Positions 2,722 through 8,595 of a stretch of 8,595 bases of DNA are shown here, piece by piece. The stretch lies in the IMG/VR virus record IMGVR_UViG_2778261121_000002; one strand, 5' to 3'. Within the stretch, counting starts at the first letter, position 1. Each line of letters begins with the position of its first letter. The stretch comes from a virus (taxonomy: Duplodnaviria > Heunggongvirae > Uroviricota > Caudoviricetes). The position numbers and the translations under genes are program-made. The notes beneath the pieces are model-generated. The model saw only the letters and a list, made by a program, of their open reading frames with translations. It was not told the origin of the DNA and did no database searches.

Positions 2722-3372
2722 ATGGCTAACATTATCATTTCTAAAAAATCCATCATTGAAGCTGCTTCCATTGTATCCGATGAACTGCGCGAAAAAGCAG
2801 ATCTGGCAACTCAAACATATAACGAACATTATAAAAATGGTACGCACACTAAAGCAGACAAAGCAAATATGCAAGCTGCGACCACTAAACTTGCTTACTT
2901 CATCAACAACGTTGTAAACGCTGTAGAAGACGAAAAATTATGCTCTGTTTTCTACTATGCGATTAAAGCAAGCAAACAAGCGCCAGAAGTATTTTTCCGT
3001 GATGCTATGACTAATAGTTATTCACTGGAAAAACTGGTTTATCTGGTTAAATCCATTAAAGCTGGTAAATGTGTTTATTCCGTCGCTGATATGTCTGGAT
3101 CTCGTGTATTCGCTTTAATCGATATGATTAACGACGAGATCGACACGTTCACCAATGGCGCTGTTTTCGACTTAATGAATGAAGCTAAAAAAGCGTGTGA
3201 AATTAAATTGGACGTTGGCTATACTCAAGCCAACCAGTTGATCAATCTTTGCGAACGTCTTGGACTTGTTGAAAAAGTCAAAGGAATGGGAAGCGCCAAA
3301 GCTGGTACACAGCAATATCGCTTTATCAAGAATGATTTCTACAATTATTTAGCTGATGCTTTCAAAGCGTAA
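2722..3372 (+). CDS. Hypothetical protein (216 aa), first gene of a three-gene operon
   Basis: RBS taaggat 7 nt upstream of ATG. Long ORF with non-repetitive composition. No motif recognised by eye. Confidence 0.8.
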   Translation: MANIIISKKSIIEAASIVSDELREKADLATQTYNEHYKNGTHTKADKANMQAATTKLAYFINNVVNAVEDEKLCSVFYYAIKASKQAPEVFFRDAMTNSYSLEKLVYLVKSIKAGKCVYSVADMSGSRVFALIDMINDEIDTFTNGAVFDLMNEAKKACEIKLDVGYTQANQLINLCERLGLVEKVKGMGSAKAGTQQYRFIKNDFYNYLADAFKA

Positions 3373-3385
3373 TTAATGGAATCAT

Positions 3386-3405
3386 GCGCCCACTATGGGC
3401 GCTTT
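3386..3405 (+). promoter_or_regulatory. Intra-operon hairpin (attenuator or RNA-processing candidate)
   Basis: gcgccca-cta-tgggcgc followed by only ttt, then the RBS aaggag. The same 20-mer recurs at 3882-3901 as part of a terminator. Confidence 0.4.
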
Positions 3406-3420
3406 AAAGGAGCTTTAAAA

Positions 3421-3624
3421 ATGGTCAGCTATGACAAGATCCGCGCGGAATATCGCGCAAAGTATCGCGCTTACAAACTGGAATTAATCGATTATTTGAT
3501 CGCGCAACGCGACCAATTAAATTTTACGTTTTCTGATTTGCTTAACAGCAAGCGAGATTGCAAGCGCAAACGTGAATACTTACGTTTAAGCGCATTAATC
3601 GGAAAACTTCAAAATTCTATTTAA
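3421..3624 (+). CDS. Hypothetical small basic protein (67 aa)
   Basis: AAGGAG 8 nt upstream of the ATG at 3421. The longer ORF from 3376 lacks an RBS and overlaps the hairpin. Lys/Arg-rich sequence. Confidence 0.6.
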   Translation: MVSYDKIRAEYRAKYRAYKLELIDYLIAQRDQLNFTFSDLLNSKRDCKRKREYLRLSALIGKLQNSI

Positions 3625-3644
3625 TTTTTTTAAGGAGCTTAATC

Positions 3645-3875
3645 ATGTTTGTTCTTATCGCTGGCGTTAACGTCCATAACGAATATTATGTTAATCGCAT
3701 CGCTGGGATCGCTGGTTACGCTGGGCGCGCAGTCGCGCTTATAGATGAAACGACGCGCAAAATTGACTTATTGAGCGACCAGGAGCGAAAAAAAGCAGAC
3801 GTGAACGACGCTGATATATTTTTAATGTTAAAAGCGTTTGTAGAAATGGGATTTGAAATCAGTTTACATAAATAA
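3645..3875 (+). CDS. Hypothetical protein (76 aa)
   Basis: AAGGAG 7 nt upstream of ATG; followed directly by tandem terminators. Confidence 0.65.
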   Translation: MFVLIAGVNVHNEYYVNRIAGIAGYAGRAVALIDETTRKIDLLSDQERKKADVNDADIFLMLKAFVEMGFEISLHK

Positions 3876-3880
3876 AATCG

Positions 3881-3904
3881 AGCGCCCACTATGGGCGCTT
3901 TTTT
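3881..3904 (+). terminator. Rho-independent terminator 1 of the plus-strand operon
   Basis: 8-bp GC-rich stem agcgccca / tgggcgct with a 3-nt loop, then a run of six T. Confidence 0.75.
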
Positions 3905-3925
3905 CGTTTCCAATACTCCCACCAT

Positions 3926-3951
3926 AACGCGCCAATGATGGCGCGTTTTTT
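3926..3951 (+). terminator. Rho-independent terminator 2 (tandem)
   Basis: 9-bp stem aacgcgcca / tggcgcgtt, loop atga, then ttttttatt. Confidence 0.65.
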
Positions 3952-4053
3952 ATTGTCTTTAACTCACTCCAACAACATAAAAATAAGCGCAAAAAATAAC
4001 GCCATAGACGCGCTTTTATATCCTCGCCAGTATATACCCATTACTTAACATAT

Positions 4054-4074
4054 TAACGCGCTTAAAACGCGTTA
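4054..4074. other. Inverted repeat in structured non-coding region
   Basis: taacgcg (4054-4060), 7-nt loop, cgcgtta (4068-4074). Confidence 0.4.
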
Positions 4075-4123
4075 TATTGCGCTATAGAGTATGGTTAATC
4101 ATTGGCTTTTAGTCTTGCTTTAT

Positions 4124-4240: not shown

Positions 4241-4364
4241 CTACGAAAGAAATCTGGATGTCTCAGGTGACGAAAGTCATCATAATTTTCCCCGCTCACC
4301 TGTCCGACAACCGCTGGTTGGATTCCACCAGCTTCCCGATGTTTTTTCTACATAAAGGCGAATG

Positions 4365-4486
4365 CAGCCGTTTCCCGAAAAAATCCTGGCCGTTTCCCGT
4401 CGGCTCATGAATACGTTCCTCGCCGTTTCTGAAAATTTCCCTGCGGCAGCTGGTGGCTATAGAGAAAGGGCCGTTTCTGGCCCTCT
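4365..4486. repeat. Iteron array 1: four direct copies of CCGTTTC(C/T)
   Basis: CCG of each copy starts at 4368, 4390, 4423 and 4471 (spacings 22, 33, 48 bp). Copy 3 reads ccgtttctgaaaatttccc. Confidence 0.6.
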
Positions 4487-4492
4487 TCTCAG

Positions 4493-4975
4493 TTACACGC
4501 CATCAAGGATGTGGATGCGGTTGCTTGCGTATACATTCAGCATAAAGTTAGCGCAAAACAGTTTCCATGTATCAACGCCAGCGGTATACGTAATGTTTTT
4601 GCATTTAATTGCATTGTTGGCGATCCGCATCCCCTGCGATACTGCTTCATCGTCGGAAAATTTGAACGACGATTGAGTTTTAATCCAGACAGAAATCTGC
4701 GTAGCGAACTCAATCAGCTTGGACTGGCAGAATCGCCCGGAGCGCACCGGAAAGACGAACGTTCCGAATCCAGAATTTACCACATATGCTTTCTCAAATA
4801 CCCGCGAGTAACGACGATTGCCAATGATGTCGCGTGCAATAATGCATTTTTCTTGTGCTGACAGTTCTACCGTCTCATTGTCGCGCCATGCACCAAGTAC
4901 TCGTTTTTCAATGTCAGAGAACGTTACAGCGATATTGCCATGTGCGGGTGCGTTTACAGTAGCGATAAAATTCAT
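4493..4975 (-). CDS. Hypothetical protein (160 aa)
   Basis: RBS aagga 7 nt upstream of ATG (minus strand); conserved promoter/leader module A upstream. Confidence 0.75.
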   Translation of the reverse strand: MNFIATVNAPAHGNIAVTFSDIEKRVLGAWRDNETVELSAQEKCIIARDIIGNRRYSRVFEKAYVVNSGFGTFVFPVRSGRFCQSKLIEFATQISVWIKTQSSFKFSDDEAVSQGMRIANNAIKCKNITYTAGVDTWKLFCANFMLNVYASNRIHILDGV

Positions 4976-5049
4976 GATTGATTCCTTATCGTAAATAACA
5001 AATTGTTTTCTTGTTGGTGTTAATTATCGTTGTACGAATAAGGCGTCAA
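4976..5049 (-). promoter_or_regulatory. Conserved promoter/leader module A
   Basis: Minus-strand reading: TTGACG, 15 nt, GATAAT, then TAACACCAACAAGAAAACAATTTGTT..., RBS, ATG. The core GATAAT + 10-11 nt + AGAAAACA is shared with modules B, C and D. Confidence 0.6.
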
Positions 5050-5063
5050 AGTGGAAAGTTACG

Positions 5064-5135
5064 GTAGCCGGACGGGAACAGGTGGGTTTGTCGGTTGCCT
5101 AGAGGTAAGAGGTTGGTGTTTTTAGCCTGCGGGGA
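5064..5135. repeat. Dispersed ~70-bp repeat, copy 1
   Basis: cggtagccgg...aggtgggtttgtcggttgcct...agaggttggtgttttt aligns with cggtagcctg...aggtgggtcttttcggtagcct...agaggttggttgttttt at 8246-8310. Confidence 0.5.
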
Positions 5136-5178
5136 ACAGGATGGTCATTTAAGGCCACCAGCATTGGCAGCCTATATA

Positions 5179-5478
5179 TCATTGCTTTCGATGTGCTGCA
5201 ACGAACTCTTTCAACGTTTCTAGCGCATGATAAAGACCGACGATATTCGAGCCGTAGTCGATGCAAACAGGGGAAAGTGATGTCTTCCCGTCGTGCGATG
5301 AATATGCCGATGTGGTAGTTGCAGGGAAATCGTGGCGATAGCAAACCGCAGTTTTTGGGTGTCGCAGATACGCTATCCCTCTTTCAAGATCATAAATTGC
5401 GCGTCGCAGGTCATGCTCCTGCGCTCTGGTCAATTTTGCCATCGTAATACTCTCACTTAATGCGGCAAAGCCAGCCAT
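5179..5478 (-). CDS. Hypothetical protein (99 aa; alternative start at 5442 gives 87 aa)
   Basis: ORF downstream of the 5525-5716 gene on the same strand, probably co-transcribed. The ATG at 5478 has a poor RBS; the in-frame ATG at 5442 is preceded by gagag. Confidence 0.55.
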   Translation of the reverse strand: MAGFAALSESITMAKLTRAQEHDLRRAIYDLERGIAYLRHPKTAVCYRHDFPATTTSAYSSHDGKTSLSPVCIDYGSNIVGLYHALETLKEFVAAHRKQ

Positions 5479-5524
5479 GATTCAAGGAATACATTTTGTG
5501 CTTTTGGGGTAATGGTGAAATCAG

Positions 5525-5716
5525 TCATCGTGCCCCCATCTCCTGCAACTGTGCAACGGTGATATCTGGACACAGCCCGTCGATCCACACCCACACGTCA
5601 ATGATGCTGTCACCGGCTTCAAAATGGTGAAATGCACGCTCAAGCTGCTGATTGTTATCCACAGGCTCATTTGCTAGCTGCGCCCAGATTTGCTGTACTT
5701 GAGTAATAGTTTTCAT
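5525..5716 (-). CDS. Hypothetical small protein (63 aa)
   Basis: RBS agagga 6 nt upstream of ATG; conserved module B directly upstream. Confidence 0.65.
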   Translation of the reverse strand: MKTITQVQQIWAQLANEPVDNNQQLERAFHHFEAGDSIIDVWVWIDGLCPDITVAQLQEMGAR

Positions 5717-5775
5717 CTGCTTTCCTCTTGTTTTCTTGTTGTTGTAATTATCGCAGTGTAGATAAGGTAGAAAAC
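5717..5775 (-). promoter_or_regulatory. Conserved promoter/leader module B
   Basis: Minus-strand reading: TGcGATAAT (extended -10), then TACAACAACAAGAAAACAAGAGGAAAGCAG, ATG. The -35 is weak. Confidence 0.5.
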
Positions 5776-5789
5776 AAATTGTTATCGGG

Positions 5790-5821
5790 TATAAGAAAAT
5801 GGCGCGGTTTACGCGCCATTT
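5790..5821 (-). terminator. Rho-independent terminator after the 5830-6225 gene
   Basis: 10-bp stem aaatggcgcg / cgcgccattt with loop gttta; on the minus strand it is followed by ttttcttat. Confidence 0.65.
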
Positions 5822-5829
5822 AAAGAGGA

Positions 5830-6225
5830 TTAAGCGAATACGCTTTCAGGGATTAAGGTATCAGCAGGAATGCCGGAGGTAATACGCAGACCGTACTGGC
5901 CAATCCAGGTGGTGCTGGTGTTCAGGCTGGAGGCGAATACGGTGTTAACCATATTCATCATGGTTTCAAACACCTCTTCATCAACCTGGCGGAAGTAGTT
6001 CTCGATTTTCAGCAGCAGCGGGTCAGTTGCATCGAGAATGGACTGGTATTGAGTCGCGTACTCGCCGCCGGAGGCATCACCTTTACGCACGATCGTACTG
6101 GCCTGTACTTCGGCACCAGTTTCGGTGTTGTACGTAACAACGGTGATTTTTGCCACATTCTTACCTTCGGCGGTTTCAGAGGCATAGTAAACATCAACTG
6201 TCAGTTTTTCGCGTTTAACGGTCAT
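5830..6225 (-). CDS. Hypothetical protein (131 aa), stand-alone transcription unit
   Basis: RBS ggag 6 nt upstream of ATG; its own near-consensus promoter upstream and terminators on both sides. Confidence 0.8.
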   Translation of the reverse strand: MTVKREKLTVDVYYASETAEGKNVAKITVVTYNTETGAEVQASTIVRKGDASGGEYATQYQSILDATDPLLLKIENYFRQVDEEVFETMMNMVNTVFASSLNTSTTWIGQYGLRITSGIPADTLIPESVFA

Positions 6226-6257
6226 TTCACTCTCCGTAGTGTATTGGTTATTTTTCT

Positions 6258-6286
6258 ATTCTATGATCGTAAGTATGTACTTACAA
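6258..6286 (-). promoter_or_regulatory. Near-consensus sigma70 promoter with embedded palindrome
   Basis: Minus-strand reading: TTGTAA, 17 nt, TAGAAT. The -35 and spacer contain the inverted repeat gtaagta-ca-tacttac (plus 6269-6284). Confidence 0.65.
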
Positions 6287-6287
6287 T

Positions 6288-6317
6288 ACAAAAAAGCCCC
6301 GTAAGGATGGCGGGGCT
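6288..6317 (-). terminator. Rho-independent terminator after the 6352-6663 gene
   Basis: 7-bp stem agccccg / cggggct with a 9-nt loop; on the minus strand it is followed by ttttttgtatt. Confidence 0.65.
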
Positions 6318-6351
6318 GTCGTACGGTCGACTAATTACCACTTGCACATTA

Positions 6352-6663
6352 TCAGGCTATTGCCATCACTGATGCTCTCTGAATCTCTTGCTGGGCCACG
6401 CGGTTAACTTCCATCAAAGCCAGTTCGAGCTGATGTTCCGGCCACATTCTTTGAAATGCCACCCAGCCTTTTCCACGCTGGCGACGAACATTCATTACAT
6501 AACGAGTAAAGGTGTTTTTATCGAAAGACACCGCTGTTTCACGGAACAGACGAATAGAGGTTCCATTGGCAACGATGTCCAGCAAAGTTAATTGAGCAAC
6601 CAGCGCAGGCTTCTCTTTTCTCTTCTGGTCTTTGTCCAGACCAAGAACCAATGATTTTTTCAT
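6352..6663 (-). CDS. Hypothetical protein (104 aa)
   Basis: Start taken at the ATG preceded by RBS acggag. The upstream in-frame ATG at 6693 lies inside conserved module C and lacks an RBS. Confidence 0.7.
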   Translation of the reverse strand: MKKSLVLGLDKDQKRKEKPALVAQLTLLDIVANGTSIRLFRETAVSFDKNTFTRYVMNVRRQRGKGWVAFQRMWPEHQLELALMEVNRVAQQEIQRASVMAIA

Positions 6664-6728
6664 CACAACTCCGTAAACAACTTGTTTTCTCAATGGCGTA
6701 AATAATACCAGTAAGAAAACGGCTACAA
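6664..6728 (-). promoter_or_regulatory. Conserved promoter/leader module C
   Basis: Minus-strand reading: TTGTAG, 15 nt, TGgTATTAT, then TTACGCCATTGAGAAAACAAGTTGTTTACGGAG..., ATG. Confidence 0.55.
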
Positions 6729-6789
6729 AGCATATTGATCAGGTGCATGAGCGATATGCAGGTTCTTCCCTGCGGCTACAGATTAAGTT

Positions 6790-6808
6790 AAGCCAGCAAT
6801 GCTGGCTT
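6790..6808. other. 8-bp stem hairpin just downstream of the 6818-7147 gene
   Basis: aagccagc-aat-gctggctt. No convincing U-tract on the minus strand, so function is uncertain. Confidence 0.35.
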
Positions 6809-6817
6809 TGGTTGTGA

Positions 6818-7147
6818 TTACGCGAATACCTCAAGAAACTCCTGAACGTCCCAATGCTGGACGAGGTGAAGATAGACCTTAGAAATCACGTCATTTTCGC
6901 TATCGCATGTGAAGTAGTACTTCTGGCTGCGGTTGTATGTGTCCACACAAAATTCGCTCATATCCATAAAGTCAGCATCTTCACCCAGGTCGCTGATCAT
7001 CAAAGCAGGTGCGTCATCACGAGTCATCAGTTCCAGCACCCATCTTGAATTGATCAGAGTGGAAGACCAACCTTCTAACTCATAAAACTGATCAAACTCT
7101 TTTTGAGTTAATTTCTTGATTTGGTTGATGTCGATATTTGTAAACAT
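6818..7147 (-). CDS. Hypothetical strongly acidic protein (109 aa)
   Basis: Start taken at the ATG preceded by aagga + 7 nt. The upstream ATG at 7168 lies inside module D. Hand count: 21 Asp/Glu against 8 Lys/Arg. Confidence 0.7.
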   Translation of the reverse strand: MFTNIDINQIKKLTQKEFDQFYELEGWSSTLINSRWVLELMTRDDAPALMISDLGEDADFMDMSEFCVDTYNRSQKYYFTCDSENDVISKVYLHLVQHWDVQEFLEVFA

Positions 7148-7212
7148 AAAGCAATCCTTAAACAACATGTTTTCTTGATGGTGTTATTATCGCAATAACG
7201 CATAGGCGAAAA
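7148..7212 (-). promoter_or_regulatory. Conserved promoter/leader module D
   Basis: Minus-strand reading: TGcGATAAT, then AACACCATCAAGAAAACATGTTGTTTAAGGATTGCTTT, ATG. Confidence 0.55.
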
Positions 7213-7473
7213 AGGATTTTGTTCCGGTAAATGTGGTTTTGGCAGTGAGTTTTCAGGTTCAGTACCGAGTACACTTTTTACATTATTCTGATTTAGTGGC
7301 CGAAAGTGGCTGGTGGCAGAGTAATCCTCTCCCCAAAAACCTACTGAAATCGATTGTGACCCGTTGGCTGTCTGGCACAATTACGCTGTAGCTGGGCATT
7401 CAGAGGGAATCCAGCGGTAAGCAAGTCCGCCTACGTGAGCGCCTCTCTTCTTCCCGCACATTACAGGTGGGTA

Positions 7474-7646
7474 GCCGCAACTTTCCCTCTCGCTATACCG
7501 GTACGCCACCGTTCCTGAAACGGCATCGAGCCTTCTCCCGAAATCCACACAGGCAACTCGACCGTTTCCCTGAAAATCCCCAGCCGTTCCCCGAAGGCAA
7601 CCCAGCCGTTTCTGTAGCGGGATGCAACCTTTTCCCTGTATGGACG
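7474..7646. repeat. Iteron array 2: about seven direct copies of CCGTTTCCC(T)GAAAA-like units with 22-bp phasing
   Basis: Copies begin near 7476, 7509, 7531, 7562, 7584, 7606 and 7628 (spacings 33, 22, 31, 22, 22, 22), e.g. accgtttccctgaaaatcccc, agccgttccccgaaggc, agccgtttctgtagcgg. Confidence 0.65.
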
Positions 7647-7689
7647 AAGGCTGACCGTAGGGGTGTTACGGGGGATAAAATCAGGAGTT

Positions 7690-7724
7690 GAATAAATACG
7701 AAAAAGGAGGCGACACCCCTCCTT
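7690..7724 (-). terminator. Orphan intrinsic terminator on the minus strand
   Basis: 7-bp stem aaggagg / cctcctt with a 7-nt loop (plus 7704-7724); on the minus strand it is followed by tttcgtatttatt. No credible ORF lies upstream of it. Confidence 0.5.
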
Positions 7725-7756
7725 CCCTCCCCACTTATACATACCTGTCTTGTTCG

Positions 7757-7790
7757 CTATACATGTTGTGTTTTCTTCGTGTTTTATCTG
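7757..7790 (-). promoter_or_regulatory. Degenerate fifth copy (module E) of the conserved promoter/leader motif
   Basis: Minus-strand reading: GATAAA-ACACGA-AGAAAACA-CAACATG. It shares the AGAAAACA core but has different spacing and no downstream gene. Confidence 0.3.
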
Positions 7791-8245
7791 TTTCAACCTC
7801 TCTATAGGCGTTAATGCTCACTCCTTCCAGAACGTTCTATACGGCGACTATTTCTGTTGGTGAATTGGGTGTGTTGTTTCCCTGTCGGTGTATGTGGTTT
7901 CGTTAGTTTTGCGGTGGTTCTTCTATGGGGTGTTCTCGTCGTTTTGGTGATTGTTCTTCTCCGTGTATGGAGTAATAGCAGGTGGGCGATTGCTTTCGTT
8001 ATTGTGTTTGAGTTGTTTGACTGGAGTGTGTGGAAGGCTTTTGTAGTTATTCGTGTATTGGGTAATGGCATTTCCCGTGATTGTTATGTTTCGTGTCTTT
8101 TGGGATTGAGAGAAGCCTTGCGGTTACAGGCTTCGTTGGGGTTTCAGCGGTTCAGGTGTTTCTTCGCTGTTTGGGTAATGGCGTGTCGTGGGTATCGCGC
8201 GTATGAATGTTTTCGGATTGCCTGTGAAAGTTAGGTTGGTTGTCC

Positions 8246-8310
8246 GGTAGCCTGGGGAGAAGAGGTGGGTCTTTTCGGTAGCCTGCCATAAAGAGGTTGG
8301 TTGTTTTTGG
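8246..8310. repeat. Dispersed ~70-bp repeat, copy 2 (internal sub-repeat cggtagcctg twice)
   Basis: Aligns with 5064-5135; see copy 1. Confidence 0.5.
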
Positions 8311-8322
8311 AAATAGCATTTG

Positions 8323-8339
8323 TGTTATTTAGTTGTTTT
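8323..8339. repeat. 17-bp direct repeat tgttatttagttgtttt (second copy at 8554-8570)
   Basis: Identical 17-mer at both positions with similar flanks (ttat follows both). Confidence 0.45.
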
Positions 8340-8500
8340 GTTATGCCTGAAAATAAGTTGTTTATACGGTTGTGTAACGCAACGGGAGCGATTTTGAGCG
8401 TGTGTTTTTGTTGGTAGTGTGTTGGGTCGTCTGTGGTGAAAATTGGACGCTGTGGCGCTGTCTGCTGCGTAGAGTTACGGGTATAAGAAATGATGTGTGA

Positions 8501-8545
8501 AAACGTCAATTTTTTAGACCAAATCGGGTGAAAGCGTTGACGTTT
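8501..8545. other. 9-bp inverted repeat aaacgtcaa / ttgacgttt separated by 27 bp
   Basis: Perfect inverted repeat. The loop is too long for a typical terminator, so it is more likely a protein-binding dyad. Confidence 0.4.
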
Positions 8546-8595
8546 CGTTGATCTGTTATTTAGTTGTTTTCTTATTTGTATAAACAACCATAACC

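Follow-up and report, generated by a model that had tools for sequence, protein, structure and literature searches.

Paired direct-repeat arrays, conserved as putative protein-binding sites, in phage-plasmids of the SSU5 type

The alpha protein of P4 binds both ori and crr, in which type I iterons (TGTTCACC) are contacted by its winged-helix domain, and G38P of SPP1 similarly binds both oriL and oriR. Centromeres of types Ib and II, such as parC of R1, parC1 and parC2 of pB171 and the omega sites of pSM19035, sometimes comprise two arrays, and in the prophage N15 the centromeres are dispersed and may lie far from the par genes. A P1-type parS is known in pMT1. Phage lambda, in turn, carries CGTTTCC in the R3, R2 and R1 sites of cosB, and ATGAAAATTTTCC in I1. 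Here we describe two arrays of short direct repeats that share features with several of these systems.

The arrays were found in a stretch of 8,595 nt (called the window throughout, and meaning the whole of the DNA analysed), whose sequence matches identify its source as an SSU5/pHCM2/pLF82-type phage-plasmid of E. coli. E. coli, Klebsiella, Salmonella Typhi (pHCM2) and Yersinia pestis (pMT1) frequently harbour such phage-plasmids, which increasingly carry resistance genes. The part of the window between 3900 and 7800 matched 166 plasmid records over at least 80% of its length, at about 97% identity, as well as the phages Cyrano (pLF82), CMS-2020a and PhiR41_1. The top match to the whole window (93.7%) was NZ_CP027369.1, a complete relative of 109,641 bp, which served as an independent genome for the motif scans and in which the arrays lie at 43.1 and 46.2 kb. 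In annotated relatives the region contains hypothetical genes only, with no feature over either array, and in the records examined the RepB replicon is the only annotated cis-acting site. We found no earlier description of the arrays in the searchable literature, nor one of a lytic origin, a pac site or a centromere for the E. coli, Klebsiella or Salmonella members; the only iterons discussed for such plasmids are those of RepA/RepB (PMC6735626).

Array 1 lies within a 590-bp noncoding gap with convergent transcription units on either side. Its parts, in window coordinates, are the following.

4345–4466, plus strand: conserved block that makes up array 1; this phylogenetic footprint also takes in non-repeat text, for example TTCCCTGCGGCAGCTGGTGG
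4365–4380, plus strand: copy 1, CAGCCGTTTCCCGAAA, the best-conserved unit and the sole one kept in the most divergent relatives (L091, L092)
4387–4402, plus strand: copy 2, TGGCCGTTTCCCGTCG, 22 bp past copy 1
4414–4420, plus strand: degenerate copy CGTTCCT, read from the sequence, at a position not conserved in other genera
4420–4435, plus strand: copy 3, TCGCCGTTTCTGAAAA, 33 bp past copy 2 (34 bp in other genera)
4436–4441, plus strand: degenerate half-phase copy TTTCCC, 11 bp past the core of copy 3 and within the nearly invariant TTCCCTGCGG
4468–4483, minus strand: intrinsic terminator hairpin of the 160-aa gene, assigned from its fold and a compensatory stem change

The octamer CCGTTTCY occurs at 4368, 4390, 4423 and 4471, always on the plus strand and at spacings of 22, 33 and 48 bp, exactly as listed in the preliminary description of this DNA. 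Six matches were observed in the window, where 0.57 would be expected, and none of 200 shuffles reached six; the relaxed form CCGTTYCY picks up 7509 and 7584 in array 2 as well. The core of the copies is asymmetric and 9–10 bp long, (G/A)CCGTTTCC(C). Whereas the strong copies stand at offsets of 0, 22 and 55 bp, the distances between TTTCC cores across the array, strong and weak ones together, are 22, 21, 11 and 11 bp. Since these spacings are multiples of about 11 bp, the sites should lie roughly on one face of the helix. In other genera, GGTTCCCC is found 12 bp past copy 2, in place of the CGTTCCT at 4414.

The original count of four copies needs to be amended. The three at 4368, 4390 and 4423 are conserved, but the fourth (4471–4478) forms the loop of a terminator, and the motif is not conserved there. 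The hairpin in question, GGGCC-GTTTCT-GGCCC, begins 9 nt beyond the stop codon of the minus-strand 160-aa gene, has a predicted energy of −17.7 kcal/mol (z = −4.48, minus strand) and is followed by TTTCTCT. It was missing from the list produced by a consensus terminator scan; in Klebsiella, Salmonella and Enterobacter, however, its stem reads GGGGC/GCCCC, a compensatory change, with the 8-mer unmatched. With the copy at 4471–4478 assigned to a terminator loop, the functional array 1 would thus consist of three strong and two degenerate copies.

An exact Chi sequence (GCTGGTGG) also falls into the conserved block, at 4449–4456 (plus strand). We rejected it as a part of the element, as it is not conserved in SSU5, pMT1 or NZ_CP027369.1. 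Further exact copies lie at 4325–4332 (minus), 5155–5162 (minus) and 7309–7316 (plus), so that the sequence is dense here, with four copies in 8.6 kb; NZ_CP027369.1 (109.6 kb) has 21 of them, and a Klebsiella locus of 14.8 kb (L006) has 11.

The second array and the neighbourhood of both comprise these features.

2722–3372, plus strand: gene of a 216-aa ORFan protein (helical hairpins at the N-terminus, winged helix at the C-terminus), a candidate binder of the arrays
3880–3947, plus strand: two intrinsic terminators at the end of the plus-strand operon, which would shield array 1 from rightward transcription
4493–7168, minus strand: six-gene block that separates the arrays, made up of small genes and variable among relatives
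7506–7640, plus strand: array 2, paralogous to array 1 by sequence, with six units (7506, 7528, 7559, 7581, 7603, 7625)
7701–7727, minus strand: terminator immediately 'upstream' of array 2, 70–90% conserved together with its flank (7660–7740)

The last four units of array 2 are exactly 22 bp apart. The proposal that both arrays belong to one family and stand in direct orientation was borne out, the two being 3.1 kb from each other. Their likeness exceeds the 8-mer (40 of 49 bp are identical within a Klebsiella genome, including DNA upstream of the first unit), and on these sequence grounds we regard the two as paralogous. Their orientation is identical in all 41 loci that carry both arrays. 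The distance varies from 1.6 to 4.35 kb, which argues against a device of fixed geometry. The arrays do bracket minus-strand genes (4493–7168), and the idea that they mark the boundaries of a module fits the anatomy, as the flanked block differs in content and length between relatives, over the same range of 1.6–4.35 kb. In two loci (L036, L045) the block is down to about 1.5 kb and still includes a homologue of the 160-aa gene. The 99-aa ORF is the only one of the six block genes with no PHROG match; the families matched by the other five are of unknown function. Each array sits just beyond a minus-strand terminator, and array 1 is adjoined by the two plus-strand terminators as well; thus, both appear to be shielded from transcription.

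Several other repeats were observed in and around the block. Most block genes are preceded, on the minus strand, by a promoter-like element of the TTGACG-N17-TAATTA type with a CA-rich, G-poor leader (ACACCAACAAGAAAACAA...), at 4976–5060, 5717–5800, 6664–6735 and 7148–7230. These elements recall the mobile promoter/stem-loop cassettes in hyperplastic regions of T4-type phages, and the CA-rich leaders could be targets of the FljA-like RNA-binding protein, whose gene is close by. The palindrome AAACAAnTTGTTT occurs at 4997–5007, 5773–5783 and 6676–6686, with a variant at 7161–7175. The 109.6-kb NZ_CP027369.1 contains 13 copies of it (0.2 expected), all intergenic and near the starts of the genes for the DnaB-like helicase, type Ib parA, terS, block genes, HD/metG, S24/toprim and nrd. 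This palindrome, which differs from the CCGTTTCC arrays, has the look of an operator or promoter element used throughout the genome. A further family, GGTAGCC(N3-5)GGGAACAGGTGGGT / GGTAGCCTGGGGAGAAGAGGTGGGT, is present at 5065–5087 and 5123–5145, where the 160-aa gene is separated from the 99-aa gene, and recurs at 8240–8300, in the GT-rich region; GGGAAC, complementary to the array core, is part of this repeat and runs in the opposite orientation.

That GT-rich region is a noncoding stretch of about 0.9–1 kb to the right of array 2 (7740–8595, running past the window), in which G and T strongly predominate on the plus strand (GC skew reaches +0.46, and AT skew falls to −0.54). Klebsiella, Salmonella and SSU5 share the composition of this stretch but not its sequence; counterparts were seen at 11200–12100 in L006, 12400–13300 in L007 and 11800–12700 in L012. 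The stretch could be prone to R-loop formation, encode a long CA-rich RNA on the minus strand or serve as a substrate for recombination. On the other side, the plus-strand operon left of array 1 encodes a UvsW-like helicase, the FljA-like protein, the 216-aa protein and small proteins. An HNH endonuclease ORF at 23–838, 271 aa long here and annotated with 377 aa in NZ_CP027369.1, is present in few relatives only, between conserved plus-strand genes, and probably entered as a mobile insertion. A direct repeat of about 55 bp (1709–1765 and 2077–2130) doubles the 3' end of the FljA-like gene (Flag1_repress, E = 2e-79). Since this repeat flanks a small, secreted-looking ORF (1769–2065), a cassette insertion of the latter is suggested; a second, similar ORF lies at 2141–2440.

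If the octamer were a frequent word in these genomes, the clusters would mean little. In NZ_CP027369.1, both strands taken together, it has nine matches: array 1 has four of them (within 104 bp) and array 2 has one, the other four being scattered over coding sequences. At the background rate of that genome, 0.0045 matches are expected per 122 bp, and the probability of finding at least three is about 1.5e-8. A 16-bp weight matrix derived from the copies of the window was also scanned over the 109.6 kb of this genome, and all eight scores of 14 or more fell inside the two arrays. Strong matches being confined to the arrays rather than spread at similar density over the genome, the repeat observation stands.

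Records of about 770 plasmids and 12 phages, those of SSU5 and Y. pestis pMT1 among them, contain array 1, and none of them annotates it. By genus, the plasmid records belong to Klebsiella (312), Escherichia (219), Enterobacter (91), Yersinia (55), Salmonella (49) and others, among them Citrobacter and Cronobacter; the concern that the motif might not be conserved in related elements is met by its retention across these genera. In four relatives from outside E. coli (Klebsiella, Salmonella and Enterobacter), the block 4350–4470 is 75–84% identical, compared with 31–55% in the noncoding DNA just upstream. Among 51 distinct sequences most positions of array 1 are at least 95% conserved, including the first three copies and the non-repeat text mentioned above. 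Array 1 is intact in pFra/pMT1 of Y. pestis, where array 2 and much else were lost through a deletion and the insertion of IS1541. As pMT1 is still a stable plasmid without array 2, the pair is not essential for plasmid maintenance.

In distant relatives, array 1 drifts in copy number and spacing: copies are 24 and 12 bp apart in L090, L091 has one good and two poor copies, L092 a single one, and pfekpn2511-2 two copies separated by 37 bp. A similar motif nevertheless stands at the same place in relatives whose homologue of the 216-aa protein is only 48% or 31% identical, and at the matching position of the very distant, AT-rich L152, GGGAAAAC(G/T)TTCCCTTTC and GGCGTTTT(T)GAA occur twice each. 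A scan of viral contigs returned 77 stretches, nearly all of them SSU5-like, and one other genuine array (L035). A scan of genome contigs for three copies at 22 bp yielded 53 unrelated tandem repeats or iterons from other phyla, none from Enterobacterales, with one informative match (L106). In L035 (IMG/VR contig 3300046714_000194), the CCGTTTCC(C) cluster lies at 1632–1760, beside a gene for a RepA/DnaB-like helicase, and in L106 (Sphingobium sp. AS12) at 3294–3345, directly after a REP_ORF2-G2P rolling-circle Rep gene. Both are independent iteron-like uses of the 8-mer at 22 bp, and hence analogies, not homologies.

Comparison of sequences thus identifies array 1 as a genuine, selectively maintained cis-acting DNA element with three strong and two weak copies in the same direction. 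A site at the DNA level is favoured over an RNA structure, because array 1 folds no better than shuffled sequences (indeed worse, z = +0.85 and +1.12 for the two strands), no Rfam match was obtained on the arrays even at E ≤ 1 (weak ones were confined to 3222–4076), and no tRNA overlaps an array. The only structured part of the array 1 region is the terminator hairpin. We infer that array 1 is a set of phased putative binding sites for a family-specific protein.

The suggestion that the two arrays form the origin and incompatibility locus of a plasmid replicon has to be abandoned. The RepB-family initiator is encoded about 35 kb away, at 81.46–82.67 kb of NZ_CP027369.1, and has its own, unrelated iterons, at least 14 copies of TATGCTGTCAGCGGT on both sides of the gene, in a layout like that of P1 and RepFIB. 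The arrays differ from these iterons and were rejected as a part of that replicon; they are a feature of SSU5/pHCM2/pLF82/pMT1-type phage-plasmids that lies outside it. A classical theta origin was rejected as well. Direct repeats at about two helical turns are present (22 and 33 bp in array 1, 22 bp in array 2), but the flanking genes gave no match to a Rep or initiator family in Pfam and PHROGs, the only Rep being the distant RepB. According to nearest-neighbour duplex stability, no AT-rich unwinding element adjoins either array; they are local stability maxima, and the weakest 60-mers of the window lie elsewhere. No DnaA box was found within 1 kb of the arrays and no IHF consensus near them, matches to both being at chance level. 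Whole-genome GC skew was uninformative about an origin, since it is monotonic and dominated by gene orientation.

Two proteins deserve consideration as the one that binds the arrays. The model of the 216-aa ORFan is a confident one (pLDDT 81.6), in which long helical hairpins form the N-terminal part and a helix-strand-helix-helix-wing unit the C-terminal one; we detected no enzymatic domains in the protein. Its family is tiny, with 102 clusters, all from SSU5-like contigs, and 23 matches among 1.84 billion representatives. Homologues with as little as 31% identity retain the putative recognition helix, YTQxNQ(L/x)I, in which T168 and Q169 are invariant, and a local inversion in L092 has not separated the gene from array 1. 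Searches of PDB sequences with the 216-aa protein and the 160-aa neighbour of array 1 gave no match, and the model of the latter protein (pLDDT 58.7) was unusable. The other candidate is a 117-aa ribbon-helix-helix (RHH) protein with a basic N-terminal tail, whose gene follows that of a 222-aa ParA-like ATPase in a type Ib-like par operon (4757–3730 of NZ_CP027369.1). Its core is 91–99% identical across genera, and the strand IKSRTMS and the helix FTRSDVIRAAI are invariant at 49% overall identity. We saw no repeat array beside the par operon of NZ_CP027369.1 and no copy of the motif in the par promoter. Of two distant RHH homologues (H156 and H157), one is fragmentary and the other, in a Providencia plasmid, has no adjoining repeat array either. 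Yersinia was not among the genera listed in the RHH search, though pMT1 keeps array 1.

The best explanation in our view, though a tentative one, would be that a family-specific protein, likeliest the 216-aa ORFan, coats both arrays, marks or pairs the ends of the variable island and serves DNA handling. According to this scheme, a sequence-specific DNA-binding protein encoded by the element would coat each array cooperatively, the best candidate being the neighbouring 216-aa protein with its coiled-coil and winged-helix parts, and the helical N-terminal half of this protein could also link one complex to the other. The ends of a hypervariable small-gene island would thereby be marked, and perhaps paired, by the nucleoprotein complexes, each of them guarded by a terminator against incoming transcription. 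Their role would be one of DNA handling, such as pairing, partition-like positioning or control of lytic replication, and not operator control of one promoter. In favour of this scheme we count the confinement of the motif, the footprint and its retention across genera and beside diverged homologues of the 216-aa protein, the paired orientation and paralogy of the arrays, the poor RNA folding, the terminators, and the winged-helix model with its conserved recognition helix and a gene contiguous with array 1. Against it stand the loss of array 2 from the stable plasmid pMT1 and the drift in copy number and spacing (22+33, 24+12 or 37 bp, or a single copy), and against the 216-aa protein as the binder, the RHH protein, a candidate that is equally conserved.

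Among other explanations, the arrays might be a replication origin of the lytic cycle, or an origin with an auxiliary site, where a phage initiator bound to both would recruit the element's own replisome. This is unlikely in our estimation, although several observations point that way. Short direct repeats every 22 bp are the classical geometry of iterons; the element encodes a DnaB-like helicase, a primase and Pol III alpha of its own, and the operon that ends at array 1 includes the UvsW-like helicase; the searchable literature describes no lytic origin for these elements; the conserved 0.9–1 kb after array 2, by its GC skew, is of the kind that favours R-loops; and the unrelated arrays of the same 8-mer in L035 and L106 lie beside replication genes. 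However, the features missed in a theta origin (unwinding element, DnaA box, IHF site, a Rep or initiator match nearby) are missed here too, the arrays being the most stable DNA of their regions, while the main cluster of replication genes is 40–60 kb distant and the copy number and spacing of the repeats are plastic among relatives. Phased repeats in variable number, in GC-rich DNA devoid of an unwinding element, would fit better to dispersed centromeres of the type Ib par system, coated by RHH dimers and segregated in complex with ParA. The ParA-like ATPase and the basic-tailed RHH protein do form an operon in NZ_CP027369.1, neither that operon nor the gene of the Providencia homologue has an array of its own, and the DNA-reading strand of the RHH protein is invariant across lineages, as is the motif. 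We still judge such a function quite improbable: some 39 kb separate the arrays from the par operon (3.7–4.8 kb), the parA promoter is devoid of the motif although binders of type Ib usually autoregulate there, array 1 persists in pMT1 while Yersinia is missing from the genera listed for the RHH protein, and the arrays are insulated by terminators and not embedded in a promoter.

Transcription itself could be what the arrays control, if they acted as operators or roadblocks, possibly looped, for a repressor that silences or insulates the flanked island. They bracket a transcription unit with a terminator abutting each, and CYRAN_109, a gene of the block, is expressed in the lysogen together with several of its neighbours (PMC9928086). 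Nevertheless, the promoter-like element closest to array 2 is about 280–420 bp away from it, array 1 is located downstream of the last gene, the block promoters already bear another palindrome, AAACAAnTTGTTT, and the distance between the arrays ranges from 1.6 to 4.35 kb, so we consider this role doubtful to a marked degree. A cosB- or pac-like packaging site for the small terminase subunit was brought to mind by the resemblance to lambda I1, and that resemblance proved textually right, as the window has ccgtttctgaaaatttccc and lambda I1 has atgaaaattttcc. The core 7-mer is that of R3, R2 and R1, phased repeats are the typical target of small terminases, and terS has no repeat array of its own. 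Yet all copies here are direct, and no IHF consensus was found near the arrays. TerL is of the Terminase_6N/Terminase_3 type, TerS has no Pfam or Nu1 match, and the terminase genes are 11–14 kb off, on which grounds we rejected a lambda cosB. Moreover, no cosN-like element was found, and two sites in the same orientation 3 kb apart would be harmful to a cos phage. In the virome ERR8973296, the coverage of Cyrano was no higher than plasmid contamination (PMC9928086). A packaging role is a very unlikely one. It is least plausible of all that the repeats have no function, having arisen by chance or by a hitch-hiking duplication or being a decaying remnant. Decay to a single copy in the remotest relatives and the loss of array 2 tolerated by pMT1 are what one would expect of such repeats, but a sharp footprint against the flanking noncoding DNA, column conservation of at least 95% over 51 distinct sequences, persistence in several genera, even where the neighbouring protein is down to 31% identity, and a chance probability of about 1e-8 speak to the contrary.

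Returning to the coating of both arrays by a family-specific protein, a bolder and rather unlikely extension is that the arrays and the 216-aa ORFan make up a hitherto unrecognised cis/trans pair, peculiar to phage-plasmids of the SSU5 type. Its function might be that of a lytic origin with an auxiliary site, of a centromere detached from par, or of a looped boundary insulating the hypervariable island; in the last case, the insulated genes would be small and possibly anti-defence. If such a pair exists, its protein family would have no known relatives. The finding would be routine if the arrays proved to be regulator sites of a simple kind. An unannotated and highly conserved pair of putative binding-site arrays is a concrete candidate for a missing function in these elements, and it gives a handle on two ORFan proteins.

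As for the known systems, the likeness to lambda cosB (R3-I1-R2-R1) lies in the identical CGTTTCC core and in TGAAAATTTCC of the window, which resembles TGAAAATTTTCC of lambda; on the other hand, all copies are direct here, unlike the inverted R2 of lambda, no cosN or terminase gene is adjacent, and there are two arrays per genome. With oriR-repA-incA of P1 and with RepFIB the locus shares direct repeats at about 22 bp and two arrays that flank coding DNA. A replicon of that kind is, however, located elsewhere in the element (RepB with its TATGCTGTCAGCGGT iterons), and small ORFans instead of a Rep lie between the CCGTTTCC arrays. Short phased direct repeats in variable copy number, in GC-neutral DNA without an unwinding element, recall centromeres, though the arrays are 39 kb from the parA/RHH operon and outside its promoter. 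In P4, alpha is a primase-helicase with a known role, whereas at our locus the candidate is the 216-aa ORFan and no unwinding element adjoins the repeats; the likeness to P4 consists in two clusters of asymmetric octamers a few kilobases apart in a phage-plasmid-like element, with a winged-helix protein as the candidate binder.
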